Shown: positions 7,797 through 46,545, numbered from the stretch's first letter. The stretch is 64,000 bases of DNA from Candidatus Uhrbacteria bacterium (GCA_016215325.1 JACRJV010000027.1:16090-80089), one strand, 5' to 3'. The notes: generated from the sequence alone by a model not told the origin. Translations and numbers: made by a program.

Positions 7797-7835
7797 GTAT
7801 TACTCTCTCGCCATTTTTGTGTTATAGTCAGAACA

Positions 7836-8225: not shown

Positions 8226-8293
8226 GAGTAGTATTGTCCATACGTCTACTATAAAATTGAGCCGCAAAGGGCGTTCCCCTTGCCGATGGCCAT

Positions 8294-11191: not shown

Positions 11192-11207
11192 CATCAGTCA
11201 ATACACT

Positions 11208-11236
11208 TTGACCCCCCTGCGGTCACATGATATAGT
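11208..11236 (+). promoter_or_regulatory. Sigma70-like promoter: TTGACC, 17-nt spacer, TATAGT
   Basis: Hexamers and spacing read directly from the sequence; the 19-nt leader motif follows immediately. Confidence 0.5.
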
Positions 11237-11246
11237 CAAGGGAGAG

Positions 11247-11265
11247 GAATACCATTGAGTATCTA
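11247..11265 (+). promoter_or_regulatory. Conserved 19-nt leader motif GAATACCATTGAGTATCTA, copy 2, embedded in a GGGAGAGG...CTCTCCC hairpin
   Basis: Identical to the motif at 7038-7056; flanked by a 7-bp inverted repeat. Confidence 0.55.
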
Positions 11266-11277
11266 ACTCTCCCTACT

Positions 11278-12027
11278 ATGGCACTAACCGGCGCTCGCAC
11301 TCTTGCACGCCGCATGGTCGGCGTTTCTGCAAAACATCCGGCAGGACAGTACGACGAACTCGACATTCTTTACCGAATTAGTGATACGATTAGCACCAAT
11401 CTTGACCTTGATGACGTATTTTTACGCATCATTAAACTGGTCGAAATGGTGACAAAGGCAGATGCATGTCACCTTTTCCTGTTGATGGATAATGAATTGG
11501 TATTGCGCGCTTCGAGCAAATCGCGGAGTAAACTCATTGGCAAGCTAAAATTGAAACTCGGGGAGGGCGTGGCTGGTTGGGCCGCGGTCAATCAAGAGAT
11601 GGTCGAGATTCCCGAAAAAGCGTACGAGGATCCGCGTTATCGATTTGTGCAAGAATTGCCGGGGGACCAATATGAAGCGCTTTTGTCGGCCCCGCTATTT
11701 TTCCGTGATCGAGTGGTTGGGGTTATCAATATTCGCAGTAAGCAGCCGCGCCATTACCCCGATCATATTTGCAATCTTTTACGCGTGATTGGCCGCCAAG
11801 TCGGGGGTGCGATCGAAAACGCGCGGATGCTGGAAGGAACCAAGAGTTTCCGCAGCGTGGTGGCTACCAGGAAATTTATTGACCGAGCAAAAGAGTTGAT
11901 TTCGCGGAAGATGCATATTTCTTCTGACACCGCCTACGAAGTCCTTTTGCGCGAGAGTATGAAAAGCGGCAAGAGCGTGAAGGAAGTTGCCGAAGCCATG
12001 ATGATTGCCGATGAGATCGAAAAGTAG
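11278..12027 (+). CDS. GAF-ANTAR RNA-binding antitermination regulator (paralog)
   Basis: Aligns along its whole length with 7056..7796 (HPAGxYxELDxLY..., ANTAR region TAYEVLLRESMKSGKSVKEVAEAM). Confidence 0.75.
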   Translation: MALTGARTLARRMVGVSAKHPAGQYDELDILYRISDTISTNLDLDDVFLRIIKLVEMVTKADACHLFLLMDNELVLRASSKSRSKLIGKLKLKLGEGVAGWAAVNQEMVEIPEKAYEDPRYRFVQELPGDQYEALLSAPLFFRDRVVGVINIRSKQPRHYPDHICNLLRVIGRQVGGAIENARMLEGTKSFRSVVATRKFIDRAKELISRKMHISSDTAYEVLLRESMKSGKSVKEVAEAMMIADEIEK

Positions 12028-17305: not shown

Positions 17306-20300
17306 ATGTCCCAAGAGAGCCAAAAGTACAATCATGGAGAAATAGAGGAAAAGTGGCAGAAGCAATGGGTCGATCAGGGCATCTATCAACAGTACGATCG
17401 ACCGGAAAAGTTTTACGCGTTGGACATGTTCCCATACCCGTCCGGGGCGGGACTGCATGTCGGCCACCCCAAAGGCTATATTGCGACAGACGTGTTTACG
17501 CGCATGAAGATGCTCCAGGGCAAGAGCGTGTTGCACCCCATGGGGTGGGATGCTTTTGGATTGCCGGCCGAAAATTACGCGATTAAAAATAAGGTGCACC
17601 CCGCCAAGGCCGTTGCGGAGAACATCGTCGTGTTTAAACAGCAGCTCCAAAAAATCGGTTTTACGTATGATTGGGATCGCGAAGTGAATACCACTGATCC
17701 CGCGTATTATCGTTGGACGCAATGGATTTTTCTTAAGCTGTTTGAACACGGGCTTGCGTACGAAGCCGACGAACCCATCAACTGGTGCCCGTCGTGCAAG
17801 ACCGGGCTTGCCAATGAGGACCTGGAAGACGGCAAATGCGAACGGTGCAGCAGTGTCGTTGAGCAGAAGAAAATGCGGCAATGGAAATTGCGCATGACGG
17901 CGTATGCGGATCGGTTGCTCGAAGACTTAGACAAGACCAAGCTCCAGTGGGAAGAATCGATTAGAATCCAGCAACGCAATTGGATTGGCAGGAGTGAAGG
18001 GGCTATTGTAAAATTTTCAATTTCTCCGCCCAAGGCGGATCCGCCTCTGGCGGACAATTTCCAATTTCCAATTGACGTCTTCACCACCCGCATTGATACG
18101 ATTTTTTCTGGCACCTTTTTAGTGTTGGCTCCGGAGCATGAGTTCGTGGACGCAGTAAAGGAGCATATTCAGAATTGGAATGAAGTGGAAACATATCGTC
18201 AAACACTCCAAACCGTTTCTTTGATTGACCGCACTTCTGCAGGGCGAGAAATCACTGGTATTGAACTCAAAGGCATCACCGCGATCAATCCCGCGACCAA
18301 AGAATCGATGCCAGTCTGGATTGCCGATTTTGTATTGGCGCAATACGGTACGGGAGCTGTCTTTGCCGATGCGCACGATACTCGAGATTTTGCAATGGCA
18401 AAAAAATATCGTATTCCACTCAAGGTTTCTATCCAACCAGAGGATCCTGCATTGCTTGAGCAAGTGAAGGCCCTTGCTGTGTGTTATCCCGGCGAAGGAA
18501 AATTATTTAACTCCCAGCAGTTTGATGGAATGACTTCTGCTCAAGCGCGTCCAAAGATCGTTGAGTGGTTGTCGCAACAAGGGAGCGCGAAACCCACCGT
18601 CAACTACAAAATGCGCGACTGGGTGTTTAGCCGTCAACGGTATTGGGGCGAGCCGATCCCGCTCATTCATTGCGAACAATGCAAGAAGAAAAAATATCAA
18701 TATGTGTTTATCCATGGATTCACTGGGAGCTCTCAGGGTGTGTTTTTCCCGTGGCTTGCGCAAGAACTAAAACGTCAAGGACACACAGTGTTCTGCCCCG
18801 ATCTCCCCAACACCGAACATCCCAACATTCAAGAGCAAGTGGAATATATTTTGGACAATACCGCAATCAACGAAGACACGATCCTCGTCGGCCACAGTCT
18901 TGGGGGGGTTGTCATGATGAAATTATTAGAGCAGATCTCGGGCAGTGTCCGGCGCGCGGTATTTGTCGATCCGGTGGTATCCAAGACATTTAATGACCAT
19001 GCTCGGCCAGACGTGGAAAAGAGTAATGATTGGAAATTTGATTATGCAAAAATAAAATCAAACATTCGAGAAGTTGTTGTGTTGGCAGACGCTCGGCATC
19101 CTATTATTCGCGTCGAGGATATTGAGAAATTGCGAACAGTCTTGAATGCAAACCAGACGATCACCGTGCATCCGGAAGCAGACCATTTTACCGCCTCTCA
19201 AGAACCGGAAATTTTGCGGGCGATTGACAGCATCGGCACCATTGCGTTGTCGGAAGACGAGTTGCCGCTGAAATTGCCTGAGGTCGAGAAGTATGAACCC
19301 ACCGGCACGGGCGAATCACCGCTAGCGGGTATCCCTGAATGGGTGAATACAACGTGCCCGCAGTGCGGTGGGGCAGCCCGGCGCGAGACCAATACGATGC
19401 CGCAATGGGCAGGATCCAGTTGGTACTACCTCCGGTATATTGATCCGCGTAATGGTGCCGCACTGGTTGATTTGAACAAAGAAAAAGAATGGATGCCCGT
19501 CGATCTCTATGTCGGTGGCGCAGAGCATGCCACGCGACATTTGCTGTATGCGCGGTTTTGGCATAAGTTCTTGTATGATATTGGCTCGGTATCGACTATC
19601 GAACCCTTCAAGCGATTGATCAATGTCGGCCTTATCCTTGCCGAGGATGGCCGTAAGATGAGCAAGCGGTGGAGCAACGTCATTAATCCGGACGATATTA
19701 TCGAACACTACGGCGCAGACAGCTTGCGCTTGTACGAAATGTTCATGGGGCCGTTTACGCAAAGTATCGCGTGGAGCACCGATGGCGTTAAAGGTGTGCG
19801 GCGATTTTTGGATCGTGTCTGGAATTTGAAAGAGCGAACTCTGAACCCTAAACTCTCTACCCTGAACCCTAATATCGATCGCCTCCTCCACCAAACCATT
19901 AAAAAAGTCACGGACGACATCGAGGGTTTTAGATTTAATACCGCCGTATCTCAAATGATGATTTTAGTCAACGCAATGGAAAAAGCCGATTCTCTGCCCC
20001 TATCTCAATTCTCTATCTTGCTATTGTTGCTCAGCCCGTTCGCTCCGCACATGGCCGAAGAGTTGTGGCACCAGCTGGGAAACTCGGAATCGATTTTCGA
20101 AGCGCAGTGGCCACAGTACGATCCATCGCTTGCCAAAGAAAGCGAAGTGGAATTTGTGGTGCAGGTCAATGGCAAGGTGCGCGATCGGTTCGCGATTCCC
20201 GTGGGACTGCCAGAAGTCCAAGTCATTGCGCAATCGTTAGAACGCGATGCGGTCAGGGGGTGGCTGGAAGGCAAGCAAATCCGCAAGAAAATTTTTGTGC

Positions 20301-20332
20301 AGGATACGTTATTGAATATCGTCGTCTCATAA
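17306..20332 (+). CDS. leuS: Leucyl-tRNA synthetase carrying an inserted alpha/beta-hydrolase domain
   Basis: HIGH motif (HVGHPKGY), KMSKR motif, CP1 editing domain; 1008 aa, about 190 aa longer than typical LeuS. Confidence 0.92.
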   Translation: MSQESQKYNHGEIEEKWQKQWVDQGIYQQYDRPEKFYALDMFPYPSGAGLHVGHPKGYIATDVFTRMKMLQGKSVLHPMGWDAFGLPAENYAIKNKVHPAKAVAENIVVFKQQLQKIGFTYDWDREVNTTDPAYYRWTQWIFLKLFEHGLAYEADEPINWCPSCKTGLANEDLEDGKCERCSSVVEQKKMRQWKLRMTAYADRLLEDLDKTKLQWEESIRIQQRNWIGRSEGAIVKFSISPPKADPPLADNFQFPIDVFTTRIDTIFSGTFLVLAPEHEFVDAVKEHIQNWNEVETYRQTLQTVSLIDRTSAGREITGIELKGITAINPATKESMPVWIADFVLAQYGTGAVFADAHDTRDFAMAKKYRIPLKVSIQPEDPALLEQVKALAVCYPGEGKLFNSQQFDGMTSAQARPKIVEWLSQQGSAKPTVNYKMRDWVFSRQRYWGEPIPLIHCEQCKKKKYQYVFIHGFTGSSQGVFFPWLAQELKRQGHTVFCPDLPNTEHPNIQEQVEYILDNTAINEDTILVGHSLGGVVMMKLLEQISGSVRRAVFVDPVVSKTFNDHARPDVEKSNDWKFDYAKIKSNIREVVVLADARHPIIRVEDIEKLRTVLNANQTITVHPEADHFTASQEPEILRAIDSIGTIALSEDELPLKLPEVEKYEPTGTGESPLAGIPEWVNTTCPQCGGAARRETNTMPQWAGSSWYYLRYIDPRNGAALVDLNKEKEWMPVDLYVGGAEHATRHLLYARFWHKFLYDIGSVSTIEPFKRLINVGLILAEDGRKMSKRWSNVINPDDIIEHYGADSLRLYEMFMGPFTQSIAWSTDGVKGVRRFLDRVWNLKERTLNPKLSTLNPNIDRLLHQTIKKVTDDIEGFRFNTAVSQMMILVNAMEKADSLPLSQFSILLLLLSPFAPHMAEELWHQLGNSESIFEAQWPQYDPSLAKESEVEFVVQVNGKVRDRFAIPVGLPEVQVIAQSLERDAVRGWLEGKQIRKKIFVQDTLLNIVVS
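18683..19258 (+). other. In-frame inserted RBBP9/YdeN-like serine hydrolase domain within LeuS, between the CEQC and CPQC halves of the zinc knuckle
   Basis: YVFIHGF...FPWL...VGHSLGG...ADHF pattern of PF06821-like alpha/beta hydrolases; lower GC than the flanking leuS sequence. Confidence 0.7.
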
Positions 20333-20370: not shown

Positions 20371-20402
20371 AAAACACCGCTATCATCAGCGGTGTTTTTT
20401 GG
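20371..20402 (+). terminator. Rho-independent terminator after leuS
   Basis: AAAAACACCGCTATCATCAGCGGTGTTTTTT hairpin plus T-tract. Confidence 0.8.
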
Positions 20403-20499
20403 TATTAATTGAGGATTTGACGGAAACGGTGCGGGCCAGTAGGATCCCCGATAGTAGCTTCATACAAGAAGGAACCACGACATGGGAGGAGGTGACCTC

Positions 20500-20718
20500 A
20501 TGAAATTCCTTCTCACGGCCGTGTTATTCGGTGCCCTGTGTGCCGCGCTTTTTGCGCTGGGCACATGGCTGGCGTTTTGCGACCGGCTGGGCCGACTGGG
20601 GGCGTGGGTCCGCGACTTCCCCCTCAATGTCTTCCTGGCATTGGCGTGGATCGCGGTCCTGCCGGTGCGAGCGTTGCGCTATGTGATGGCGCTGGCTCGT
20701 GACGGGATTGAGTGGTAA
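20500..20718 (+). CDS. Small two-helix membrane protein, first gene of GC-rich segment A
   Basis: RBS GGAGGAGGTGA 6 nt upstream of the ATG; two hydrophobic helices; GC about 62%. Confidence 0.45.
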   Translation: MKFLLTAVLFGALCAALFALGTWLAFCDRLGRLGAWVRDFPLNVFLALAWIAVLPVRALRYVMALARDGIEW

Positions 20719-21012
20719 CTTCAACTTGCACGCAGAGTGGCTCCACTGGCCCTCACGAGGGATGCGCGCATCGACGATAAGGATGAGGAGGAACGGATGA
20801 AAAGACCGCAAACGGAACGCCGTGTCCGCAGCGATGGACGCGACGTGATCATATGTGTGGATTCGGACCCGCGGCGGCGGGGCCGAATGGGCGCGATCCT
20901 GGAGAAGGATTCGCGAAGCTCCGATCACCGCGAGGTGATCGGGATCCAATCGCTGGAGCCGGGGTTGCTGGAGAGCGAGCGGCTTCGGGCGCTGATCTTC
21001 AACATCATTTTC

Positions 21013-21051
21013 GCGGCCGGCACAGGGGTTCCCTCCCTCTGTTCCGGCCGC
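21013..21051. repeat. 39-nt palindromic repeat GCGGCCGGCACAGGGGTTCCCTCCCTCTGTTCCGGCCGC, copy 1
   Basis: Exact copy at about 22284-22322; stem of about 12 bp, then a T-rich tail. Confidence 0.7.
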
Positions 21052-21088
21052 TGCTTATTTTTGGGGATTAATGAGGACCGAATCGTTC

Positions 21089-21190
21089 GAGTCATCCTGA
21101 GCCCAAGCCAAGGATCTTACCGTTGAGGATTCCCCGCCTCGGGCGGGATCCCGCTGCGGCGGGACTTCGGCTCATGGCCTCAGAATGACG
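21089..21190 (+). other. Structured element of about 100 nt: long inverted repeat GTCATCCTGAG...CTCAGAATGAC enclosing two tandem GC hairpins
   Basis: Inner hairpins CCCGCC-TCG-GGCGGG and CCCGC-TGCG-GCGGG; followed by a T-run; no match to known RNA families. Confidence 0.35.
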
Positions 21191-21317
21191 ACTTTTTCAC
21201 AGCAAACGCGTACGTCCGGCGCAATAGCGTGTCGGCAGTTTTTTGTTTGTTTGACAAGGGGGGGGTGCAGTTTGCTAGCATAGGGCGACCATCAACATCG
21301 TGGAGAGGAGGACTACT

Positions 21318-21701
21318 TTGAAAATTGCGTGCGTGGGCTTCAAGGCCGAATTCGTCGTGCGCTTGCGCGACCATGGACTCAACGAGGAATTCCAGGATCC
21401 AGGGATCGTCTACGATTATGTCGACGATTCGACCACCGCGGCGCATCGAGGGACGCTGGAAGGGGCCGACCTGGTGCTTGCCACGTCCGGCAGCGCCATC
21501 AGTTTGATTGCCGATGCCAAACGGCATCGTGTGGCTGATCGCCTGGTGGTGATTACCAAGGACACCGCTGATCCCAATGCGCAGTTCGTGGTAGAGACTA
21601 CGGGCGGAACGACCTTTGTCTGGACGGACAAGGTCACCCACCCGCGCGATCTGGCCAAGCATGCGCGGATCCATCTGGAGAAGATTCGCCGCAACGGCTG
21701 A
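21318..21701 (+). CDS. Hypothetical protein in GC-rich segment A
   Basis: Strong RBS GGAGAGGAGGA 5 nt before a TTG start (alternative GTG at 21300); GC about 60%. Confidence 0.5.
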   Translation: MKIACVGFKAEFVVRLRDHGLNEEFQDPGIVYDYVDDSTTAAHRGTLEGADLVLATSGSAISLIADAKRHRVADRLVVITKDTADPNAQFVVETTGGTTFVWTDKVTHPRDLAKHARIHLEKIRRNG

Positions 21702-21797
21702 CAACCATCACCAGCGCGCAGAGGCTTTGCGTTCCGTCAGACGATGGGGCGGATGCTTCGCGAGGGATGCGTGCTTCTACCGAAATAGGAGGCAATC

Positions 21798-22265
21798 ATG
21801 CCGAGACCCCCTAAGGGTTGTAAGCAGGACCACTCGAGCGGCTGGTGGCTGCTCAACTTTGACAGCGATCCCGTCTTCCGGGGTCGCATTGACACGTTCG
21901 GCCACCTGGCGATGGGTGGCATGGACTACAACCGCAAGGATTCCGCTGACGTGGCGTTGGCGATCGCTGATGGTCGCCTCAAGAGCGCAACGCTCTGCTT
22001 CATTCCGGTGGAGCTTGGCGAAGCGGACTTGGGGCGCCTGCTGGCCGAGGCCAAGGTGCAGGGCTCCGCCAACCGCTGCGTGATCACCTACTTCGCGGCG
22101 GACCGCGACAAGGAGCACGCCGAATTCTGGGCCGGCAAGTTCGGTTCCGTCGCGCTTCACAAGAACATGGAGTCGACCGAGCCCAGCGCTGAAGCCTTCT
22201 TCAAGGCCGCCAGCAAGCAGCGCGAGAAGGCTGCCCTCCAGGGCGGCATGGGCTGCACGATCTGA
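21798..22265 (+). CDS. Hypothetical protein in GC-rich segment A
   Basis: RBS AGGAGG 6 nt before the ATG; 155 aa. Confidence 0.55.
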   Translation: MPRPPKGCKQDHSSGWWLLNFDSDPVFRGRIDTFGHLAMGGMDYNRKDSADVALAIADGRLKSATLCFIPVELGEADLGRLLAEAKVQGSANRCVITYFAADRDKEHAEFWAGKFGSVALHKNMESTEPSAEAFFKAASKQREKAALQGGMGCTI

Positions 22266-22283
22266 TTCCTCGGTTCACATTCA

Positions 22284-22322
22284 GCGGCCGGCACAGGGGT
22301 TCCCTCCCTCTGTTCCGGCCGC
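22284..22322. repeat. 39-nt palindromic repeat, copy 2, immediately after the stop of 21798..22265
   Basis: Identical to 21013-21051. Confidence 0.7.
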
Positions 22323-22354
22323 ATCTCTTTTATTGCGAGATAGATCGAGATAAC

Positions 22355-22440
22355 GATACGAAGATATGAAGAATTTTCGATCGCAAATTTCCAATAAATT
22401 TTTTTGCCCCTTCGTATCCTCATCTCTTTATATCTCATTT
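22355..22440. mobile_element. AT-rich MITE-like palindromic element with GATACGAAG / CTTCGTATC terminal inverted repeats, sitting in the GC-rich segment
   Basis: Related copies upstream of tmk (about 54391-54473) and upstream of glyA (about 172-215); sharp GC drop relative to its flanks. Confidence 0.45.
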
Positions 22441-22444
22441 CGGA

Positions 22445-22473
22445 TTGACACCCTCCTTGGCCTGCGATAGCAT
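22445..22473 (+). promoter_or_regulatory. Putative promoter: TTGACA, 17-nt spacer, TAGCAT
   Basis: Hexamers read from the sequence upstream of the 22567 ORF. Confidence 0.35.
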
Positions 22474-22566
22474 GGGGCCACGTTTCACATTCACAGAATT
22501 CCGGCGGGAGGGCGCTGGGATTCTCAAAACATCGGCCCGTTGTCCATCGGACCGAAAGGAGGCCAC

Positions 22567-22989
22567 TTGGCCGCTCGACGAGTACTCGCGGTCGGGAGCG
22601 AAGCGCTCCTCGACTGGTGCCGGCAACACGTCGGCAAAATCGTAGTAGAGCCGGGGCTCTACAGCGTGTTGGAGCCCGAGACTGTTCTTCGGAAGGGGTT
22701 GCTGGCAGGACTCGTCCTCGGATTCGTCGAGGCCGCACTCGAAGGCGCCGAGGACTTGCTTTCGGCCGCACGTCGGACTGGTTGCCACAAGGTTCTGATC
22801 TTCGTCCACAGCGGGAGCCAAGGTCAGCACGACGCAGAGCAGCTAGCAGGCCTGGCGGGCAGCGTCCACATCGACCTGGGGGCAGACCCCGACCATGCGG
22901 TCGAAGAGATCAACGAGCATCTCCAACGGCTCGTTCACCCGGAACCGGTCAGACGTGTCCCGGCGTCCGAGCGTCAGGGGGTGAATTGA
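22567..22989 (+). CDS. Hypothetical protein (GC-rich)
   Basis: RBS AAGGAGG 5 nt upstream of a TTG start; the listed ORF start at 22540 places the RBS inside the ORF, so the downstream start is preferred. Confidence 0.4.
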   Translation: MAARRVLAVGSEALLDWCRQHVGKIVVEPGLYSVLEPETVLRKGLLAGLVLGFVEAALEGAEDLLSAARRTGCHKVLIFVHSGSQGQHDAEQLAGLAGSVHIDLGADPDHAVEEINEHLQRLVHPEPVRRVPASERQGVN

Positions 22990-23152
22990 CCTTGCGGTCC
23001 GCGTAAGAGCCCTCCCTCTTGCCCGGACCGCGTTTCTTTTATAGGGCAGACGAGCAGATAAGCCTGCCTGCCGGTAGGCAGGGAGGTAAAGAGACAAAGA
23101 TATACGGGCGGATAATTGGATAAAGTATTGCGGTATGGTAGGGTGATGGTGT

Positions 23153-24256
23153 ATGGATTGGGATCAATTTGTTCAACGGCATGCCGGCGATGGAGGGCTG
23201 TTGCAGTCCAGTAGCTGGGCCAAGTTTCAGCGTGGGCTGGGAAGAACGGTAGATGCTATTGTCATTCCCGCGAAGGCGGGAATCCAGAAAATAAAAACTG
23301 ATCGTGGATCCCTGCCTATCGGGCGGGCAGGCCCGATCTCGGTCGGGGATGACACCGCAATGGTTGCGTTAATCATTGAACATAGATTCCCGTTTGGTCA
23401 GTCGTATGTGTATTCGCCGAGGGGGCCGGTCACAAAATTTCCAATTTCCCTGCCTTGCTGGCAGGCAGGCAATTTCCAATTTTCAATGAACGGTATTGTT
23501 AGTGAAATCCGCAAGAAATTCCCAAAGGCAATTTATTGGAGAGTAGAGCCACCATACGAAAATTTTCAATTTCCCTGCCTTGCCGGCAGGCAGGCAATTT
23601 CCAATTTCCAATTAAGGAGTGCTCCGCACAATGTGCAGCCAGCGACGACGCTCATTATCGATCTTTCAACATCCGAAGAAGAACTCTTGGCGCAGATGAA
23701 ACAGAAGACGCGATACAACATTAAGATTTCACAACGACATGGGGTGCGAGTTTCAGTAAACAGTGAACAAGAAACAGTAAACAACTTTCTGGATTTGTTG
23801 GAAGAAACGGCCAAACGCGATGGGTTCCGTGTTCATCCGCGGGGGTATTATCAGAAATTTCTCACCCTCACCCCAACCCTCTCCCAGGGGGAGAGGGGGT
23901 TGAGCATCGAACTCTTCGGCGCTTTCCACGGCGATCAGCTCCTCGCCGGTGCCATTGTCGCGTTCTACGGCAAGTGGGCGTATTACTTGCACGGAGCTTC
24001 GTCATCCGGGCGTCGCGACTTGATGGCTCCGTATTTCTTGCATTGGGAAATTATGCGGGAAGCCAAACGGCGTGGGTGCACGAAGTATGATTTTTGGGGG
24101 GCAGGGGATGAATGGCCGGGCGTTTCCAAATTTAAAACCGGCTTTGCGCCGGCAACTGCGTTGACTCACTATCCTGGAACGTTTGATATTGTCCTTGACC
24201 GGAAAAAATATTTCGTGTATCGTGCGTTTCAAACGATTCGACGCCTCGGGTCGTAG
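23153..24256 (+). CDS. FemAB-family peptidoglycan peptide-bridge aminoacyltransferase carrying three in-frame repeat-element insertions
   Basis: C-terminal YYLHGASSSGRRDLMAPYFLHWEIMREAKRRGCTKYDFWGAG...FKTGFAP is typical FemX/FemAB; the N-terminal half is interrupted by palindromic elements. Confidence 0.7.
   Translation: MDWDQFVQRHAGDGGLLQSSSWAKFQRGLGRTVDAIVIPAKAGIQKIKTDRGSLPIGRAGPISVGDDTAMVALIIEHRFPFGQSYVYSPRGPVTKFPISLPCWQAGNFQFSMNGIVSEIRKKFPKAIYWRVEPPYENFQFPCLAGRQAISNFQLRSAPHNVQPATTLIIDLSTSEEELLAQMKQKTRYNIKISQRHGVRVSVNSEQETVNNFLDLLEETAKRDGFRVHPRGYYQKFLTLTPTLSQGERGLSIELFGAFHGDQLLAGAIVAFYGKWAYYLHGASSSGRRDLMAPYFLHWEIMREAKRRGCTKYDFWGAGDEWPGVSKFKTGFAPATALTHYPGTFDIVLDRKKYFVYRAFQTIRRLGS
23262..23340 (+). 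repeat. Palindromic insertion (ATTCCCGCGAAGGCGGGAAT hairpin plus a CCCTGCC...GGCAGG variant) inside the FemAB-like CDS
   Basis: Perfect 8-bp stem; in-frame; encodes IPAKAGIQ... Confidence 0.5.
23434..23488 (+). repeat. Repeat element AAATTTCCAATTTCC-CTGCCTTGCTGGCAGGCAGG-CAATTTCCAATT inserted in-frame in the FemAB-like gene
   Basis: Near-identical copy at about 23549-23613; the CCTGCC-N8-GGCAGG palindrome also occurs at about 13281, 23063 and 36187. Confidence 0.65.
23549..23613 (+). repeat. Second copy of the TTCCAATTTCC-CTGCCTTGCCGGCAGGCAGG-CAATTTCCAATTTCC element in the FemAB-like gene
   Basis: As above. Confidence 0.65.
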
Positions 24257-24281
24257 AGTCTCCAGGAGGTGGAGAGTGATC

Positions 24282-24479
24282 ATGACCAAGCTCCGTCTGG
24301 TACCCAGCGGAGCGAAATTCAAGCTCAAGGATCGGCCGGAAATCTACACCAAGCTCCCCGAACCCGTTCAGCGCCAAGGGGAGTGGTGGGTGGCAGTCCG
24401 CACTGACGGGCTCTACTCCTTTTCAAGAGGACACCACGACGACAAGAAAGTCATCATGGTGTCAGTGCCCGAACGGTAA
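24282..24479 (+). CDS. Small hypothetical protein (65 aa, GC-rich)
   Basis: RBS GGAGGTGGAG upstream of the ATG; followed by a strong terminator. Confidence 0.45.
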   Translation: MTKLRLVPSGAKFKLKDRPEIYTKLPEPVQRQGEWWVAVRTDGLYSFSRGHHDDKKVIMVSVPER

Positions 24480-24497
24480 TGGCGCTATTCTACTCCC

Positions 24498-24540
24498 AGC
24501 CCTCTCCGGCGCTTCGCGCGTTCGGAGAGGGCTTCTTTCT
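24498..24540. terminator. Bidirectional terminator hairpin AGCCCTCTCCG...CGGAGAGGGCT
   Basis: 10-bp perfect stem plus T-tract; lies between the small ORF and the convergent prfA. Confidence 0.7.
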
Positions 24541-24558
24541 ATTGTTCATGAAAAAATA

Positions 24559-25635
24559 TTAACTGCTGAGCGGGGCAGGATTCGTACTTTTCTCCGTTTC
24601 TTGCAGCGCCTTGGAAATTCCCTCAATATCTCCATCCAGAATCGAGGGGAGCTGGTGCCAGCTTTGCCCAATGCGGTGGTCGGTGACCCGATCTTGCGGG
24701 AAGTTATACGTGCGGATCTTTTCGCTGCGATCGCCGCTGCCGATCTGGGATTTGCGGGCGGCGCTGTCGGCTTGCCGGCGCTTTTCTTGCTCAAGGGCAA
24801 ATAACCGCGTCCGCAGCACTTCCATGGCTTTTCCCCGATTTTGGAGCTGACTGCGTTCGTCTTGGCAACTCACAAAAATTCCCGTGGGCAAGTGTGTTAA
24901 ACGGATTGCGGAGTATGTCGTGTTCACACTCTGCCCCCCATGGCCGGATGATGTCGAGGTTTCGATTTTTAAATCTTTGGGGTCAATCATAATGTCGAGC
25001 TCCTCGGCCTCGGGCATGACCGCGACGGTCACCGTAGAGGTGTGCACGCGGCCGTTTTTCTCGGTCTCGGGCACGCGTTGCACGCGGTGGACTCCGGCTT
25101 CGAACTTGAGCCACTTCCAAACATTTCCCCCCTCAATCTTGATCACCACCTCTTTGTAGCCGCCAATGCCGATACGATTGGTAGAAAGGATGATTGTTTT
25201 CCAGCCCATCCGCTCCGCAAAGCGCGTGTACATGCGGTAGAGCTCTGCGCTGAAGAGCGCCGATTCATCGCCCCCGGCGCCAGCCCTGATTTCCATGATA
25301 ATATTGCGGCGGTCTAATGGGTCTGGGGGATTTAAGAGTTCATCCAGTTGCTGTTCAAGTTTGTTGCGTTCGTCCTCAAGGCCGGGGAGTTCTTGGTTGG
25401 CGAGCCCCGCGAGTTCGCTCGTGGAATCCTCCGCAATCAATGTTTTATGTTCTTTCAGTTCGTTCTCGATGCGTTCGAGCTCGGTGAGCAATTCATGTTG
25501 CTGCGAAATTTCGCGGAATTGTTTTGAAGTGGTTTTGAGTTTTTGAGCATCACTCAATACCGCCTCGCTGGAAAGTTCAGTTTGCAGGCGTTGATGGGTT
25601 TGGCGGATGTTTTGGCGCTGAGTTGGAGTGATCAT
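24559..25635 (-). CDS. prfA: Peptide chain release factor 1 (atypical PET tripeptide)
   Basis: GGQ motif (SGHGGQSVN); RF1-type recognition loop RVQRVPETE...GRVHTS; alternative start at 25683. Confidence 0.85.
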
Positions 25636-25701
25636 AGTGAGAGTATATCGGCGTTTTTGTTGAGCGTCAAAAAACTCCCCCAAGTGGGGGAGTTTTGAGT
25701 C

Positions 25702-26025
25702 TCAGTTTTGGGGTTGCTCAATCTTTGGTTCTGCCGTCTCCTTTTCTTTTGCCGCTTCTTTGCGCTTAAGGGTCCGGGCTGCTTGTTTGGCGCGCTTGCC
25801 TTTGCGTGTGCTAGCCACTTCGGCTTTCTGGGTCATGCGTTTTTGATATTTATCAACGCGTCGGGCGGTGTCGAGGATGCGTTGCGTACCCGTGTAATAC
25901 GGGTGGCATTTGGCGCAGACTTCGATGTGGATTTCGGGGATGGTGGAACCAACCTCCAGACGATTACCGCAGGAGCAGACGATCACGGCGTTGGTATGAT
26001 ACTTTGGGTGGACGTCGGATTTCAT
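25702..26025 (-). CDS. rpmE: 50S ribosomal protein L31
   Basis: MKSDVHPKYH...CSCGN...CAKCHPYYTG; the listed ORF runs upstream across noncoding sequence, the true start is at 26025. Confidence 0.9.
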   Translation of the reverse strand: MKSDVHPKYHTNAVIVCSCGNRLEVGSTIPEIHIEVCAKCHPYYTGTQRILDTARRVDKYQKRMTQKAEVASTRKGKRAKQAARTLKRKEAAKEKETAEPKIEQPQN

Positions 26026-26274
26026 AAATACATAACGCGAATACCGTTCAGCCGCAACGGCTAGTCGGGCATGCGAATACCGCGAATAATTTTTGTAGAA
26101 ATAGTATACCATCATGAGTCGTGCTTGACAAGGGAGGGGAATGGCCGGTAGGGTTGGGGGAGAATCATGTTTAGAGCGAGTCCATCGCCGCCCCACACGG
26201 GTGGCGATTGTTTTTTCCGGTGGCTCAACAGCGACCGGAGATCGGATCACCCGCACAGGGTGAGAGGAGCGGTC

Positions 26275-26700
26275 ATGCACGATCGGCAGATACTGCACGC
26301 AACGGTGCAGGGTCTCCTGCGCCAGGCCACGGAGATCAAGGGTCTGGACGTCAACTCCTGGCTCAGGGAGGAGGATGGGAGAGAGGCTGTCGTCGACCTC
26401 CTGACCACGACCCTGGGCAGGGTCTACAACAGCGCGCACGCGGTCAAGTTGACCAAGGCTTTCGCGGCCCTTCGTGCGTGCCAGAAGGACGACGGCCGGG
26501 GCACGATGTTCCTGCGCGCCTCCCTCCGTGGCCACCCCGAGATTGACTCCGAGCTCAAGAGGCTCGAGGCGATCCTGGCTGCCAGCGTCATGGAAGCGCC
26601 GCAGCCGCTCGCCAAGGCCTGCCCGGCCGGGATCCGGCATATCGCCGGCGAGTGCGACCAGGAATGCGATCGCATCGCCGGGATGTTCGCCCAGCGCTGA
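26275..26700 (+). CDS. Hypothetical protein in GC-rich segment B
   Basis: RBS GAGAGGAG before the ATG; GC about 65%. Confidence 0.5.
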   Translation: MHDRQILHATVQGLLRQATEIKGLDVNSWLREEDGREAVVDLLTTTLGRVYNSAHAVKLTKAFAALRACQKDDGRGTMFLRASLRGHPEIDSELKRLEAILAASVMEAPQPLAKACPAGIRHIAGECDQECDRIAGMFAQR

Positions 26701-26951
26701 TCTGGACGAGCTCAACTCACACGGGCAGACGGTCGCGCCTCATCGCGCTGCCGTCTGCCCGAGGGCCCTTACACTCCTCGATTGTTTGTTTGACAGATAA
26801 TCTGCGTTCCGCTAGGATAGAATCAATATGCATCGATCCCAACTCACCAGCCGTGTCGTCGTGGTCCGCCCCTTGAGGAAGCGGTGATCTTGGCATAGAA
26901 AAGAGTAGAGCCAAACGCCGCCTCCAAACGGGCGGTCTTTTTTATAGAAAA

Positions 26952-27062
26952 TGGTTGACGGAAGATGGAAATTGGTAATAGAAAATAGAAACTGGAAACT
27001 GGAATGATCTTCGAATTTCTGGTTTCCAACATCCATTACTATTTTCTGTCTTCCATCAACCA
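26952..27062. repeat. Imperfect palindrome of about 110 nt, GGAAATTGGTAATAGAAAATAGAAACTGGAAAC...
   Basis: Clearly related to the palindromic spacer at about 53628-53750 (GGAGATTGGTAATAGAGAGTAGAAAATAGAGGTTGGAAAC). Confidence 0.6.
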
Positions 27063-27235
27063 GTTTCCAATGCTAAGCGTTCTCTTGGGCATGCCGGAGA
27101 AATTTCGTCTCGAATATCGAGTATCGAATATCTTTTCTCTCGTGTGCCGAGGATGACGATTCAACTGGAGGAGAACCGATAGTATCGGTTCAAATCGTCG
27201 TTACTCTAGGATTGACAACAAGGAGGCCACCAACC

Positions 27236-27592
27236 ATGGTGAGCTGCGGATACCAAGATCGCGAGCAGGAGGCGTGCTACCCCGAATATGTTGCCCCGGA
27301 CACCAAGCACAAGCCGGGGTCCAAGCCCATCGGCTACCAGGACGTCCGCGTTCACGCCGGTCGCAGCCACGGCCGACACCGCATGAAGCGCATGCGCGTG
27401 TTCGCCTGTGAACACTGCGGGCACCAGGATGGACACCGCACGCTGCGGACCCACAACTGCCCGGTGCTGACCGGTACCTTGCGCATGCATACGCCGATGC
27501 TCCTCAGCCGGGACACCTGGGGCTGCGCAAACTGCTCCGCCACCGGCGAGGACGACTCACTGGATGGCCGGCACTGCTCGGCCACGTCCTAG
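27236..27592 (+). CDS. Cys/His-rich hypothetical protein (putative zinc-binding)
   Basis: RBS AAGGAGG; CEHCGH...HNCP...WGCANCS. Confidence 0.5.
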   Translation: MVSCGYQDREQEACYPEYVAPDTKHKPGSKPIGYQDVRVHAGRSHGRHRMKRMRVFACEHCGHQDGHRTLRTHNCPVLTGTLRMHTPMLLSRDTWGCANCSATGEDDSLDGRHCSATS

Positions 27593-27609
27593 GGCGACCC
27601 AAACTTCCC

Positions 27610-27677
27610 GCCCCCGTAGATCACGGTAGATCGTCCGCTCAACACGCGGGAGGTAGGGTTCAATTCCCCCGGGGGCT
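27610..27677 (+). pseudogene. tRNA-like element 1 (atypical; possibly a degenerate tRNA)
   Basis: Perfect 7-bp acceptor stem (GCCCCCG/CGGGGGC), D-arm GATC-ACGGTA-GATC, T-loop GGTTCAATTCC; but a weak T-stem and an anticodon loop TCAACAC with no U33. Confidence 0.3.
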
Positions 27678-27684
27678 CCGAATC

Positions 27685-27753
27685 CGCTCGCGTAGCTCAA
27701 CGTAGAGCGGCCCGACAACATCGGGCAGACGCGGTTCGAGTCCGCACGCGGGC
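27685..27753 (+). pseudogene. tRNA-like element 2 (atypical; possibly a degenerate tRNA)
   Basis: Acceptor GCTCGCG/CGCGGGC, D-arm TAGCTCAACGTAGAGC, anticodon stem GCCCG/CGGGC, T-arm CGCGGTTCGAGTCCGCA; anticodon loop ACAACAT is non-canonical. Confidence 0.3.
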
Positions 27754-27945
27754 ATCACCTCCACTCCCCGCATTCTGCGGGGCAAACCGGCTGGGGAGAG
27801 TGTCGTTCGCCTCATCGCGAACAACTCTCCCTGGCCGCCCTCCCTCAAAAACAAATCACTCTATAAAAGATAAAAATAAATTATTTTTGTGCACCCTCTT
27901 GACAGTGCAATTGAATTCCCATAAACTCGTCTGTTATACTAGGTC

Positions 27946-28089
27946 ATGAAGACTATGAACTTCTTCCAAACTCATACACTGTCCGCAAGCAAGTTGGGCG
28001 CCAAGCAGGAGCTCGTGCTTTGCCGTGTCATTGCAAAGAATATTTTTGGCCGGGCCAGTGGTGGGAAGAAGAAAAAAAGATCCTCGTAA
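27946..28089 (+). CDS. Small ORF (47 aa) with a basic tail (GGKKKKRSS), downstream of a promoter-like sequence
   Basis: TTGACA...TATACT upstream; not in the ORF track because it is under 60 aa. Confidence 0.25.
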   Translation: MKTMNFFQTHTLSASKLGAKQELVLCRVIAKNIFGRASGGKKKKRSS

Positions 28090-28461
28090 GTTTGTAGAAC
28101 AGATTCCCATGAGAACCACACACTGGCCCTAACCAACGGCCAGTGATTTATTATACGGGGATAATACGAATACTTAATCAGGAGCAACAGACAGTCGGGG
28201 ATGCGAATACTGCGAATGCTAAAGGTAGCTCTCGACTTCGCTCGAGCAATAATAAAAAGTAGCTATTCTTCGAGCAAGCCGCAGCGCAGTCGAGAAGTAC
28301 CTTTTCCAGAGCACATTAAAATCACAAAAGTTGACCGACCTGTTGAGGGGGAACTTCTAACTTTCCCTCTCGCCTGGTCGGTTAACACTTGTAGGGAGTA
28401 GCGAGTAGCACCCTACCAACTCGCAGTCGCGCGGCGCGTGACTGCACGGAGGACTCACCCT

Positions 28462-28830
28462 ATGTCCACCCCAATTTCCTCGAAGGAGCTGCTGTACCAG
28501 CAGATCCTCGTCGAAGCTCGAGCATTCGGCAAGCGCGGCGAGCGCTGGATCACAACACACGGAGGGGCGGCAGCCGCAAAGGCTGCTCTCGAGGGCGAAG
28601 TGGCGGGTCTCAACAACCTCCACACCCGCCACCTTCAGACACTGATTCAGGGTGCGGTTCTCGCGCGCAGCTTGCGCGAGAACTCCGAGGCCAAGGAGCT
28701 GGCCAAGAGGACCGTCACGGCCCTCTGCAAGCACGCTCCGAGTGCCTCCAAGGCCCTCCGCTCGGTGCCCCAGCTGGGTGGCGAGTACATCGGCGACGTC
28801 AGCGACGGTTCGACGGTCGGGCCGCGCTAG
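28462..28830 (+). CDS. Hypothetical protein in GC-rich segment B
   Basis: RBS GGAGGA before the ATG; 122 aa. Confidence 0.5.
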   Translation: MSTPISSKELLYQQILVEARAFGKRGERWITTHGGAAAAKAALEGEVAGLNNLHTRHLQTLIQGAVLARSLRENSEAKELAKRTVTALCKHAPSASKALRSVPQLGGEYIGDVSDGSTVGPR

Positions 28831-29141
28831 TATGGCGGCCGATCAAATCTGACAAGGAGGTGAGACCGTGAGCTGCGCAGCGCGCGTGCGGTGGTTCACG
28901 GCCGACCGGATCCTGTAGCCACCGAGGGTGTCGCGCCCTCCGGGGGTTCGGTGGAGTGTCGATCGAGGTTCCATTAGCCTACGAAGACACAGAAGCCGAG
29001 CTCGCTACGGAACCAAACGGCCGAGAATCAAGTATCTAGTAGAATGGCCACCGCGGTCCTCGAGCCCGCTTCTAGCTCGTGACCGCCCCACCCGTCCTCA
29101 ACGCATCCCCTGTGATGCAGCGAGGCGGCAACACTACCCAT

Positions 29142-29185
29142 GAGGGCTCCCGCACACCGCGTGCTGGAGCCCTCTCGTCTTTTTA
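29142..29185 (+). terminator. Rho-independent terminator GAGGGCTCC...GGAGCCCTC plus TCGTCTTTTT
   Basis: 9-bp perfect stem plus T-tract; ends a transcribed region of about 300 nt that has no long ORF. Confidence 0.65.
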
Positions 29186-29356
29186 TAGACTTTTGACAGA
29201 ATGAGGTTTTTTGAATATCGTGTGAGGCACCATTGATCTGCGAGGATTGGAGGCTTTTGGCCTATAGTCCTTGCCGATTAATATATGCAACGACCACGGC
29301 GGTCGGAGCAACCGTAACATCCGATGGGACGCCATCGGTGGTAGATTGGAGGATCG

Positions 29357-29545
29357 ATGTACTTCCACGACGTTGTACGAGTTGGCGGTTTGGTGGTCAG
29401 GGACGGCAAGCGGCACGTCTTCGAGTGTCGACGCTGCGGCAAATTGAGCCCGGGCAGTCGAAAGGACTGTCCGGTGCCGCCTGGGGGGAAGCGCCATGAC
29501 CACAAGGGGCCCAATCCGCCATCTGGCGGAGTGGTTGAGGTGTGA
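29357..29545 (+). CDS. Small zinc-ribbon protein (62 aa)
   Basis: RBS GGAGGA 6 nt upstream; ECRRCGKL...DCPVPPGGKRHDH. Confidence 0.5.
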   Translation: MYFHDVVRVGGLVVRDGKRHVFECRRCGKLSPGSRKDCPVPPGGKRHDHKGPNPPSGGVVEV

Positions 29546-29807
29546 TTCGGGAAGGAACGGAGGGCGGCTGCGCAATCCATGGTAGTTCGCGCAAACAACG
29601 GATCGCGCAGATCAGGGGGGCGCGATAGACTGCCCGCCGGAGGGCATGGGCGCGCTTCTAGGACAACGGCGATCTTGATTTAACCCCGCTTTCGAGACCT
29701 CAACGGCCCGCCCTCATCGGCGCGCCTGCGAGGTCTCTCTTCATTTCTGCAGAGTTCCCTCTCCCTGTGGGAGAGGGTCAGGGTGAGGGGATTAAGAAAA
29801 ATTCCGG

Positions 29808-29840
29808 GATGAAAAATCAAAAACCCGCCGTGTGGGCGGG
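29808..29840 (-). terminator. Rho-independent terminator for the minus-strand gene 29849..30154
   Basis: CCCGCCCACACGGCGGG hairpin followed by a T-tract on the minus strand. Confidence 0.7.
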
Positions 29841-29848: not shown

Positions 29849-30154
29849 CTACCGTTTGTTCATCTCCTCCCATTGATCCTTAAGCGCACTAGAAAGTTCT
29901 GCGAGTTTTGTATTCGCAATCTTTTTGTTCTTCTTGTACTCCACCATTAGCTGGTCCACGAGCGCTTCGTAGGCTTTCTTGGAACGCTTTTTGAGCTTGG
30001 GATATTCGGTGGCAATCCGGTCCGAAAGTTCTTTGGCATATTCTGCAGTATCTTTGCGGAGCTTCTTGTTAGTTTTGTCCGGGAGCATCAGGACCACGGC
30101 GCTGGCCACCAGCGCCCCCAGGGCCGAACCGGCGATAAAGGATTTCTTGCTCAT
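29849..30154 (-). CDS. Small membrane-anchored coiled-coil protein (YtxH/DUF948-like)
   Basis: N-terminal transmembrane segment plus a charged helical region. Confidence 0.5.
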   Translation of the reverse strand: MSKKSFIAGSALGALVASAVVLMLPDKTNKKLRKDTAEYAKELSDRIATEYPKLKKRSKKAYEALVDQLMVEYKKNKKIANTKLAELSSALKDQWEEMNKR

Positions 30155-30349
30155 AGATTTTTAGAAGTTAATGACTCCGGATCAAGGATATTACGAATCC
30201 TTCAATTGATCTTTCATGGCCATGTTTTCCTTAAGCCAGAGAACAATTTCAAGGATTTTGTGGATCATTTCTTGATCATTCATAAGTTTGATCTCCATCA
30301 TTATAGCATAGAAAATAAATACCGCATCATTCTGGAGTTGTGTTCTCAA

Positions 30350-30420
30350 TCGGGCTGCCGGGAATTGAACCCGGTCTACATGCACCCCATGCATGCGTAC
30401 TACCGGTATACTACAGCCCG
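30350..30420 (-). tRNA. tRNA-Pro (anticodon GGG)
   Basis: Cloverleaf on the minus strand: acceptor CGGGCTG/CAGCCCG, anticodon arm CATGC-ATGGGGT-GCATG, T-arm CCGGGTTCAATTCCCGG. Confidence 0.85.
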
Positions 30421-32739: not shown

Positions 32740-32847
32740 AAGCAAGATTAATTTTCAATTATCAATTTGCAATTTTCAGTGAATTTTCAATTGATCATTG
32801 AATATTGATTGAAAATTAGAAATTGGAAATTGAAAATTTTTTTGTTT
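32740..32847. repeat. AT-rich spacer element (AATTTTCAATTATCAATTT...TTGAAAATTAGAAATTGGAAATTGAAAAT) upstream of fusA
   Basis: An about 40-nt near-identical stretch also occurs at about 56022; the family is shared with the 36421, 40972, 56017 and 57223 spacers. Confidence 0.6.
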
Positions 32848-36420: not shown

Positions 36421-36518
36421 TTTCCAATTTCCAATGAATTTTCATTGTCATTATTCTTAAATTGAATCATTGTAAATTCAATGAAAATTGTTACTTGAAA
36501 ATTGAAAATTATATCGGT
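36421..36518. repeat. AT-rich spacer element (TTTCCAATTTCCAATGAATTTTCATTG...AATTCAATGAAAATTG...TTGAAAATTGAAAAT) upstream of dnaE
   Basis: Contains the 16-nt palindrome CAATGAATTTTCATTG; shares ATTCAATGAAAATT with the 56017 spacer. Confidence 0.6.
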
Positions 36519-46528: not shown

Positions 46529-46545
46529 CCACAAGCGTTTCTATC

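Follow-up and report, generated by a model that had tools for sequence, protein, structure and literature searches.

We analysed a 64,000-nucleotide stretch of DNA (hereafter the window) from a 106.6-kb contig of a Candidatus Uhrbacteria metagenome-assembled genome (MAG) of the candidate phyla radiation (CPR)/Patescibacteria, whose genes carry locus tags HZA86_054xx-055xx. Interspersed with core genes such as leuS, femAB, prfA, rpmE and thrS, the window contains GC-rich blocks of genes (islands) that are led by Shine-Dalgarno (SD) sequences, while the core genes are essentially SD-less. The initial annotation had taken these blocks for horizontally acquired DNA, possibly an integrated element. 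Our results point instead to an anciently acquired, vertically kept and SD-dependent class of accessory genes, arranged as clade-conserved expression cassettes with turnover, and we put the probability of this reading at about one half. According to it, the genome would hold two gene classes, an SD-less, AU-rich core and GC-rich, SD-led accessory units, the latter forming arrays at two intergenic sites (between leuS and femAB, and downstream of rpmE) and a single gene after the thrS-MFS pair. The units would have been seeded laterally in the ancestor of the subclade and inherited vertically afterwards, with genes turning over inside conserved leader and terminator frames. A predicted valine attenuator precedes one of them.

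Composition and start signals of the two gene classes

In 1-kb windows, GC content was 0.60-0.62 at 20.5-23.0, 28.5-29.5 and 45.5-46.5 kb and about 0.50-0.53 elsewhere. Together with a gene-level codon check, this confirmed the contrast in GC and in GC at third codon positions (GC3) with flanks of about 50% GC. We defined the island set as 11 open reading frames (ORFs) on the plus strand within the GC-rich stretches, located at 20500-20718 (72 aa), 20797-21126 (109 aa), 21318-21701 (P0001), 21798-22265 (P0002), 22567-22989 (P0003), 24282-24479 (65 aa), 26275-26700 (P0005), 27236-27592 (P0006), 28462-28830 (P0007), 29357-29545 (62 aa) and 45365-46528 (P0008); the core set comprised 46 ORFs. Island ORFs had a GC of 0.57-0.67 and a GC3 of 0.70-0.87, against a GC3 of 0.52-0.68 in the core, and overall GC was 0.62 vs. 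0.51. The Karlin dinucleotide difference (delta*) between islands and core of the window was 121, compared with 31-51 among equal-sized core chunks, in line with the compositional distinctness assumed initially. The ORF at 24282-24479 is an additional member of the class. The third of the blocks first described is restricted to 45.3-46.6 kb: the gene at 44124-45020 has a GC of 0.58 yet a GC3 of 0.56, lacks an SD, is conserved in the clade and falls outside the island class. Of the products, first described as small hypothetical proteins, P0008, with 387 aa, is not small. AT-rich palindromic repeats and one low-GC, SD-less mini-gene (27946-28089) break up the blocks.

The chosen island frames show GC3 > GC1 > GC2 periodicity, which indicates real coding. 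This bears on the alternative of mainly structured, non-coding RNAs in the GC-rich stretches, whose ORFs would for the most part be accidental. Stop codons are scarce in GC-rich DNA, so that spurious long ORFs arise on either strand; leaders as well as 3′ regions are highly structured, and codon periodicity is absent in the GC-rich segments 28831-29185, 27593-27840 and 29546-29745. Set against these points are the large excess of GC3 over GC2 in the chosen frames, a properly spaced SD in every chosen ORF, protein conservation with in-frame divergence and AlphaFold folds that are partly confident. We consider this alternative extremely unlikely.

A GGAGG/GGAG-type purine tract was found 3-12 nt upstream of the start in all 11 island ORFs. 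By a loose SD test (GGAG or GAGG at positions -20 to -4), 14 of the 57 window genes were positive, comprising the entire island set and three others, and the association of SD with GC3 of at least 0.70 had a Fisher p of 2.3e-8 in the window and 1e-14 across six related loci. The initial annotation had ascribed strong SD sites to the block genes, none to the core genes, and to the blocks translation signals of their own; all three observations were borne out. The start regions (-30 to +30) of core genes, essentially SD-less, had an upstream GC of 0.37 and a folding energy of -7.1 ± 3.5 kcal/mol, compared with a GC of 0.59 and -14.9 ± 3.5 kcal/mol for those of island genes. As an indirect sign of a functional anti-SD, avoidance of SD-like motifs inside core genes was examined, and no significant depletion was seen (z about -1). 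SD-independent initiation requires unstructured start regions, from which we infer that GC-rich, folded messages depend on SD pairing. This need would tie GC-richness and SD together, the likely cause being that GC-rich folded starts could not be initiated without such pairing, and the core genes would initiate SD-independently from short leaders.

The blocks are built as arrays of co-oriented units with a sigma-70-type promoter, a structured leader, an SD, a small ORF and a terminator. Promoter-like TTGACA-N17-TA(g/t)nnT sites were seen 15 times in place of the 3.8 ± 1.9 expected (a four-fold excess), with those on the plus strand preceding island ORFs; the island promoters are of the same TTGACA type as elsewhere in the window. 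Units terminate in a GC hairpin followed by a T-run. The duplicated 39-nt palindrome that had been thought to delimit the blocks is real, but its copies at 21013-21051 and 22284-22322 are the intrinsic terminators of two successive units (units 1 and 2) and not flanking repeats.

Conservation, turnover and origin of the GC-rich units

Syntenic loci were fetched with the femAB neighbour as anchor. Five to six related loci were available in all, and the presence and absence of the blocks in them gave a mixed picture. In L088 and L090, whose core proteins are 63-73% identical to those of the window, the order is comM, a LysM/M23 gene, leuS, small plus-strand genes, femAB, prfA and rpmE (both on the minus strand), with further small plus-strand genes in L088. 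The small genes have a GC3 of 0.66-0.86 vs. 0.45-0.58 in the core and are GGAGG-led, and the core is again SD-less. The same pattern was seen 3′ of rpmE in L094 and L096, so that both sites, leuS|femAB and the one downstream of rpmE, hold GC-rich, SD-led genes among these four relatives, all with core proteins 63-73% identical to those of the window. Among more distant relatives (46-56% core identity), leuS abuts femAB directly in L093, where block 1 is absent, and L092 has other genes between leuS and femAB and, after rpmE, a MerR gene with an SD and a GC3 of 0.81. As a separate observation, leuS of the window carries an alpha/beta-hydrolase insert (residues about 467-628) that is also present in L088 and L090 (994-1026 aa) and missing from L092 and L093 (806-815 aa); the insert marks the subclade having block 1.

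Orthology was detectable for the 72-aa peptide, P0001, P0003, P0006, the 62-aa protein, the C-terminus of P0002 and P0008. For at least five of the island families the orthologues are also in synteny, with 29-47% identity and z = 10-27 vs. shuffles. Orthologues were located for P0001 (L088:8409-8813, z = 26; L090:9347-9763, z = 10.6), P0003 (L088:9452-9820, z = 13), P0006 (L088:13371-13847, z = 17; L096:4052-4300, z = 13.5) and the 62-aa protein (L096:6104-6277, z = 11.5), and L094:4660-4869 was assigned as the P0006 counterpart solely from its position and motif. For the 72-aa ORF, a homologue lies at L090:9074-9256 (51% over 49 aa), and the 3′ end of P0002 with its terminator is 75% identical to L096:1-165. 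An exhaustive HMMER search for P0008 found three homologues among 1.84e9 representatives; the two that were placed lie in genomes of roughly 50% GC, are themselves GC-enriched and have kept the GGAGG and a homologous terminator. One of them sits in the conserved gene order thrS-MFS-x-P0008, in a relative only 28% identical. Leaders, attenuator and terminators are likewise conserved among relatives at the DNA level.

The islands also resemble one another in composition. Islands of the window, L088 and L090 differ from each other by a delta* of 39-73 and their cores by 33-35, against 91-146 for island-core comparisons, and the codon shift of the islands is alike in both genomes examined (AAG 0.81 vs. 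0.40, GAG 0.66 vs. 0.38, with more CTG/CTC and ATC). Since core proteins are only 63-73% identical, synonymous sites should be saturated, as judged from protein divergence, and the contrast in GC3 and SD would then be maintained or continually renewed rather than the fading scar of one recent transfer. On this basis we regard the GC3 excess and the SD as probably maintained features.

These data bear directly on the view that a high-GC donor gave rise to the blocks through recent integration of an element, mobile or derived from a phage, that has retained the donor's composition and translation signals. It would account for the distinct GC, codon usage and dinucleotide signature, the ORFan proteins, the tRNA-like sequences within block 2 and the absence of block 1 in L093. 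The finding of filled sites in relatives of only 63-73% core identity, however, largely refutes it. The genes femAB, prfA and rpmE alternate with the blocks, the island signature is common to several genomes (delta* 39-73), the promoters are of the type used in the rest of the window, one unit begins with a host-style SD-less mini-ORF, and P0008 stands in the conserved thrS-MFS-x-P0008 synteny. No island protein gave a qualifying Pfam, PHROG, NCBIfam or PADLOC match to integrase, transposase, conjugation or phage genes, and no match to P0008, P0002 and P0001, the sole proteins searched there, was found in phage, plasmid and IMG/VR collections (tblastn; IMG/VR scan). There are no flanking direct repeats and no tRNA-gene insertion, the sole long direct repeat being the terminator palindrome inside block 1. 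The tRNA-like sequences pointed out at the block limits are real cloverleaves by ARAGORN and Rfam, but they lie inside block 2, are kept in relatives and are not att remnants. We therefore consider a recent element very unlikely and see no support for an integrated element. A horizontal origin at some point is still plausible, because the islands have a distinct dinucleotide signature (delta* 121) and their own SD signals and because block 1 is absent from a distant relative (L093); it is the recent acquisition that is not supported.

As the sequence is a MAG contig, a chimeric assembly, in which a 50%-GC CPR genome was joined to fragments of a GC-rich organism, was also considered. Logan contigs, assembled independently from run SRR12113407, match window positions 22284-23286 and 23901-28022 with 100% identity and cross the borders of block 1/femAB, femAB/65-aa gene/prfA and rpmE/block 2; neither the outer borders (left of block 1, right of block 2) nor block 3 fall within them. 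The covered borders are not chimeric. Moreover, composition alternates more than ten times, continuity at the operon level is seen where a leader of host type passes into a GC-rich gene, and the same architecture is found in separate public assemblies from other samples (L088=L089, L090~L091, L094~L095). The probability of a chimera is practically negligible.

The main rival is continuing cassette exchange, in which conserved leaders and terminators serve as homologous frames for the repeated uptake of small genes out of a pool that is rich in GC and uses SDs, such as that of GC-rich Patescibacteria or of their plasmids or phages; the contrast would then be owed to constant renewal by transfer and not to selection. 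Several observations favour such exchange. The leader of unit 5, which in the window precedes P0005, is kept in L096 with another ORF downstream, and the leader of unit 9, which precedes P0007, stands in L088 and L096 before an unrelated family (L088:14581 and L096:5427 are alike, z = 27; P0007 is similar to neither of them, z = 0.4). Gene content and order of block 1 vary among the window, L088 and L090, and the MerR gene of L092 sits at the rpmE site. Terminators of the window have common loop motifs, as if copied from one scaffold: the loop CCCTCCCTCT of the unit 3 terminator is common to those of units 1 and 2, and the motif CCTCATCG occurs in four island hairpins, its enrichment being modest (8 vs. 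2.8 expected; 8 was reached in 1 of 100 shuffles). GC-rich, SD-using Patescibacteria do exist, as shown by L006 (GC 0.615; GGAGG-led genes with a GC3 of 0.8-0.9), and single-gene GC steps in L010 and L007 are sharp. On the other hand, orthology with synteny across genomes holds for at least five families, and no donor was found: the P0008 relatives (three in 1.84e9) are all from syntenic CPR loci where the context was seen. Word-indexed searches of 5.8e9 proteins retrieved for P0008 and P0002 only the queries themselves, which is a weak negative because a 44% homologue was missed. Phage, plasmid and IMG/VR matches to P0008, P0002 and P0001 are lacking, and no recombinase was found. Continuing exchange as the explanation appears rather unlikely to us, yet exchange and vertical inheritance may both contribute.

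The loci L007 and L010 came from a contig scan with prfA, which gave only distant relatives (at most 60% identity, no clade synteny) and exposed GC-rich, SD-led genes there. Both are unrelated Patescibacteria (43% and 30% GC, respectively) with sharply bounded, GC-rich, GGAGG-led genes amid an SD-less core. L010:2520-3290 has 60% GC in the 30% GC genome, and examples in L007 lie at 6572-9060, 11058-11513 and 18300-19075; among these genes are a 195-aa ORFan (GC3 0.86) and dapB plus an oxidoreductase. The occurrence of such genes suggests that the link between SD and GC is widespread in Patescibacteria.

A number of points weigh against an ancient, vertically kept gene class. P0002, P0005 and P0007 have no counterpart in L088, and slots refilled with unrelated GC-rich genes would suit continuing import and vertical descent equally. 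The single genes of the L010 type look like plain recent transfer, and both processes may operate. The comparison covers five to six related loci, none more than 80% identical. Use of the SD by island genes is deduced from sequence, with the 16S ribosomal RNA (rRNA) 3′ tail and the ribosomal protein set lying outside the window. Ordinary codon selection does not explain the high GC3, because the ribosomal protein and EF-G genes are not GC3-rich. Finally, a spacer of about 290 nt of AT-rich palindromes lies between the predicted attenuator and P0006 and could hide a promoter.

Predicted attenuators and tRNA-Val-like genes

The region 26790-27835 on the plus strand resembles a classical ribosome-mediated attenuator unit. 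Within the predicted attenuator (26790-26944), the promoter TTGACA-17-TAGGAT (26790-26818) is followed, 9 nt past the -10 box, by an SD-less leader mini-ORF (26828-26887) that encodes MHRSQLTSRVVVVRPLRKR*. Four helix regions were delimited: region 1 (26865-26872) starts at the last Val codon, region 2 (26877-26886; GGAAGCGGTG) overlaps the final codons and the stop, and region 3 (26916-26925; CGCCGCCTCC) precedes region 4 (26930-26937), which is followed by T6. ViennaRNA gave -18 to -22 kcal/mol for the 2:3 antiterminator and -11 to -13 kcal/mol for the 3:4 terminator, which lies directly before the U-run. Folding was carried out sequence by sequence; column-based counting of pairs was dropped, as region 4 was misaligned by one base. 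The four orthologous copies (window, L088, L094 and L096) retain the reading frame, the stop codon and a Val/Ile/Leu run, with leader ORFs of 19-20 codons carrying VVVV, VVVVV or LIVVV and an in-frame 3-nt indel; the orthologous peptides are MHYANFTTAVVVVVRLFRKR*, MTQHQRINSVVVVVRLQWKR* and MQHFQLTSSLIVVVRPLRSR*. At the DNA level the attenuator is 82% identical to that of L096, where flanking core genes are 72-80% identical.

Downstream of the attenuator, a scan for consensus promoters up to P0006 found none. The P0006 region (27135-27592) contains a conserved hairpin in the 5′ untranslated region (cgaggatgacgat...atcgtcg), the SD AAGGAGG and P0006 itself. Two tandem tRNA-Val-like genes detected by ARAGORN and Rfam follow on the plus strand at 27610-27677 and 27686-27754, and then a terminator hairpin at about 27793-27835. 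When the region was searched alone, they scored 40.8 and 38.7 bits against the Rfam tRNA model (RF00005; gathering threshold 29), and the filters missed both in the whole-window run. Eight of 18 pairs of the cloverleaf show compensatory changes among the copies of the window, L088 and L096. The anticodon is of Val type (AAC in the window pair, GAC in L088 and L096), but all four copies have C33 in a loop NC(A/G)ACAN instead of the near-universal U33 of canonical tRNAs, which is why we name them tRNA-Val-like. A tRNA-like gene follows P0006 in three of four genomes.

The geometry of the unit looks like classical ribosome-mediated attenuation, and regulation by charged tRNA would follow from it. 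In the model that we propose, the near-leaderless 19-codon ORF with its VVVV run would overlap the alternative antiterminator and terminator helices, and a scarcity of charged tRNA-Val would lead to read-through into the Cys-rich P0006 gene and the two tRNA-Val-like genes. Phe-rich leaders with terminator/antiterminator alternatives were also found beside rpmE in L088:12575-12715, L094:3241-3370 and L093:13002-13130, the last being the outgroup, with peptides such as MHSIRFFSFGFFRPS... and MQYFHSFSFGFFFTPP.... When these leaders were folded with the 5′ part masked, as for a stall in the Phe run, the antiterminator formed, and masking up to the stop gave the terminator. The rpmE-adjacent slot of the window and L096 has a different leader with a hairpin and T6 (26184-26217 in the window).

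In enterobacteria, attenuators of ilvBN and ilvGMEDA have Val-rich leaders and those of pheA and pheST Phe-rich leaders. The units described here are similar in the short Val (or Phe) leader ORF, the 1:2, 2:3 and 3:4 helices, the terminator and the geometry of the stall site. They differ in that no SD precedes the leader ORF, whose start lies some 9-14 nt past the -10 box, and in that the predicted targets are a Cys-rich ORFan and tRNA-Val-like RNAs and not biosynthetic enzymes. A literature search of incomplete coverage yielded no description of the pattern of GC-rich, SD-led genes amid an SD-less core nor of leader-peptide attenuation in CPR bacteria. A more far-reaching proposal is that this CPR clade has two initiation regimes, that the GC-rich SD regulon is selected and not a relic of transfer, and that it is partly switched by Val/Phe attenuators, the first in CPR, one of which controls C33 tRNA-Val-like RNAs. 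Taken as a whole, we see this as possible but doubtful.

Further units, encoded proteins and comparison with known systems

All remaining units lie on the plus strand. In block 1, unit 1 (20417-21061) has a promoter-like TTGACG-17-TAGGAT at 20417-20445, followed by the 72-aa membrane ORF and the 109-aa ORF, each with an SD; the latter runs through the hairpin of palindrome copy 1, after which the T-run follows. Unit 2 (21251-22338) begins with TTGACA at 21251-21256 and TAGCAT 19 nt downstream, contains the SD-led P0001 and P0002 and ends in palindrome copy 2 with its T-run. Unit 3 (22445-23040) comprises the promoter TTGACA-17-TAGCAT (22445-22473), an 87-nt leader with a hairpin, an SD with P0003 and a terminator at 22995-23040. 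Between femAB and prfA, unit 4 (24262-24540) consists of the SD AGGAGG, the 65-aa ORF and a terminator hairpin; it is also present in the independent Logan contig L001.

Block 2 starts with unit 5 (26125-26761), whose promoter TTGACA-18-TAGGGT adjoins rpmE. Its leader contains the conserved hairpin with T6 mentioned above and a second hairpin that abuts the SD, and P0005 is followed by a terminator at 26722-26761. After the attenuator unit comes a unit of host composition (27899-28150) with the promoter TTGACA-17-TAAACT (27899-27927) and the SD-less 47-aa mini-ORF at 27946-28089 (GC about 0.47), then a hairpin and a T-rich tail. The mini-ORF is conserved at L088:14113-14217 and may be a leader for the following gene. 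Unit 9 (28335-29185) includes the conserved leader hairpin, the SD context gcgtgactgcaNggagg and P0007, then a GC-rich stretch devoid of codon periodicity (28831-29140), containing an SD with a 16-codon ORF (28869-28918), and a terminator at 29143-29185. The approximately 350 nt 3′ of P0007 (28831-29185; GC 0.62-0.68), which open with this SD and 16-codon ORF, had no Rfam match and may represent a structured RNA or a decayed gene. Unit 10 (29193-29745) has the promoter TTGACA-17-TATCGT (29193-29221), an SD with the 62-aa CxxC protein, a GC-rich 3′ region and a terminator at about 29695-29745 that is conserved in L088. At the right edge of block 2, a segment with tRNA-Pro(GGG) and a ytxH-like gene (29849-30420, minus strand) is inverted relative to L088:16884-17311 (plus strand).

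Block 3 (45290-46600) holds the SD GGAGG, P0008 and a terminator at 46548-46600. A long imperfect inverted repeat (agacacgaccgcggtattcttttgc ... gcaaaagaatatcacggtcgtgtct, 45040-45270) lies between a 298-aa gene and P0008, preceded by a hairpin CCCTCATCG...CGATGGGGG that is found upstream of the P0008 homologue in L083 too.

Scans of the island proteins against Pfam, PHROG, PADLOC and NCBIfam gave nothing above threshold. P0001 and P0003 are paralogous small alpha/beta proteins, and the AlphaFold model of P0001 best matched receiver and pseudo-receiver domains (TM-scores 0.6-0.65). P0008 has an N-terminal signal or transmembrane helix and a C-terminal predicted beta-sandwich. The models behind these fold calls are of modest confidence, with a predicted local distance difference test (pLDDT) of 59 and, for P0001, 64, so that the receiver-like fold and the beta-sandwich are tentative. 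Both P0006, which is Cys-rich and zinc-ribbon-like, and the 62-aa protein bear CxxC motifs. With the folds tentative, the products would comprise alpha/beta domains resembling pseudo-receivers, CxxC proteins, a secreted protein with a beta-sandwich and a very small membrane protein.

Core genes confirmed by Pfam include leuS (17306-20332), the femAB-type gene (23153-24256), prfA and rpmE (24559-26025, minus strand), fusA (32809-34941), dnaE (36462-39779) and thrS (41040-42857). The femAB-type ORF remains open across a number of palindromic repeats, among them GTCATTCCCGCGAAGGCGGGAATCC and D1 (57 nt), with inserts at about 23258-23355, 23434-23490, 23559-23615 and 23865-23897. The inserts encode lineage-specific peptides such as VIPAKAGIQ... 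and FPISLPCWQAGNFQF, and the corresponding loops of orthologues hold other inserts. Transcription units are set apart by AT-rich filler, palindromic or in tandem (ggaaattggtaatagaaaatagaaactggaaactgg..., tggaacc repeats), at 26940-27130, 28160-28330 and 57960-58010. The palindromic repeats between the island units recur in other parts of the window, and a 40-nt repeat is present at 26048-26087 and 28178-28217. On the minus strand, gyrB (61762-63906) holds an intein (Intein_splicing domain at residues 206-484), and thyX (54478-56016) is of double length, with 512 aa and two Thy1 stretches.

We compared the units with several known systems. The morons of lambdoid phages are autonomous promoter-ORF-terminator modules of deviant composition. 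The island units share with them single small ORFs, a sigma-70 promoter and intrinsic terminator of their own and a composition unlike that of their neighbours, but there is no prophage: they lie between leuS, femAB, prfA, rpmE and thrS at conserved positions, and no PHROG or phage matches were obtained. Genomic islands acquired by horizontal gene transfer (HGT) are similar in their deviant GC, codon and dinucleotide usage, their ORFans and, here, the absence from the outgroup at one site. In contrast to these, the units have no mobility genes, att repeats or tRNA-gene insertion, and they are old and syntenic with a contrast that has not faded. Like integron cassette arrays, they are co-oriented small ORFans, each followed by an imperfect palindrome, with turnover at a fixed site. 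We rejected an integron, as the units have their own TTGACA-N17-TAnnnT promoters, the palindromes have T-runs, core genes are interspersed and no intI or integrase domain was found; as for attC motifs, the palindromes look like terminators, judged by reading the sequence only.

The closest precedent, by analogy, for an SD-less core with a few strong-SD genes is that of the Bacteroidia. Their ribosomes are SD-blind, the anti-SD being masked by bS21/bS18/bS6, and rpsU retains a strong SD for autoregulation (PMC9976891, PMC13000453, PMC13000457). The window is alike in its SD-less core genes with AU-rich, unstructured starts and its small set of genes with a strong SD. It differs in belonging to another phylum and in that the SD set consists of many accessory GC-rich ORFans and not of rpsU; the genes for 16S rRNA and bS21 (rpsU), together with rpsR and rpsF, lie outside the window.

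If the contrast is indeed stable over deep divergence, the rule by which gene finders and HGT detectors take deviant GC and a different ribosome-binding signal as a mark of recent transfer would mislead in CPR genomes. The loci can be used to ask how SD-less bacteria translate SD-led, GC-rich messages, and they bear on why composition is held apart within one genome and on the roles of CPR small ORFans. The predicted Val/Phe leader attenuators are regulatory devices that can be tested directly, in a group where hardly any gene regulation is known, and suggest that amino-acid auxotrophs may sense the levels of charged tRNA. Placed before tRNA-like genes, an attenuator would form a regulatory loop of an unusual kind. 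If the far-reaching proposal of two initiation regimes with Val/Phe switching is true, auxotrophic epibionts could read out their amino-acid supply directly.

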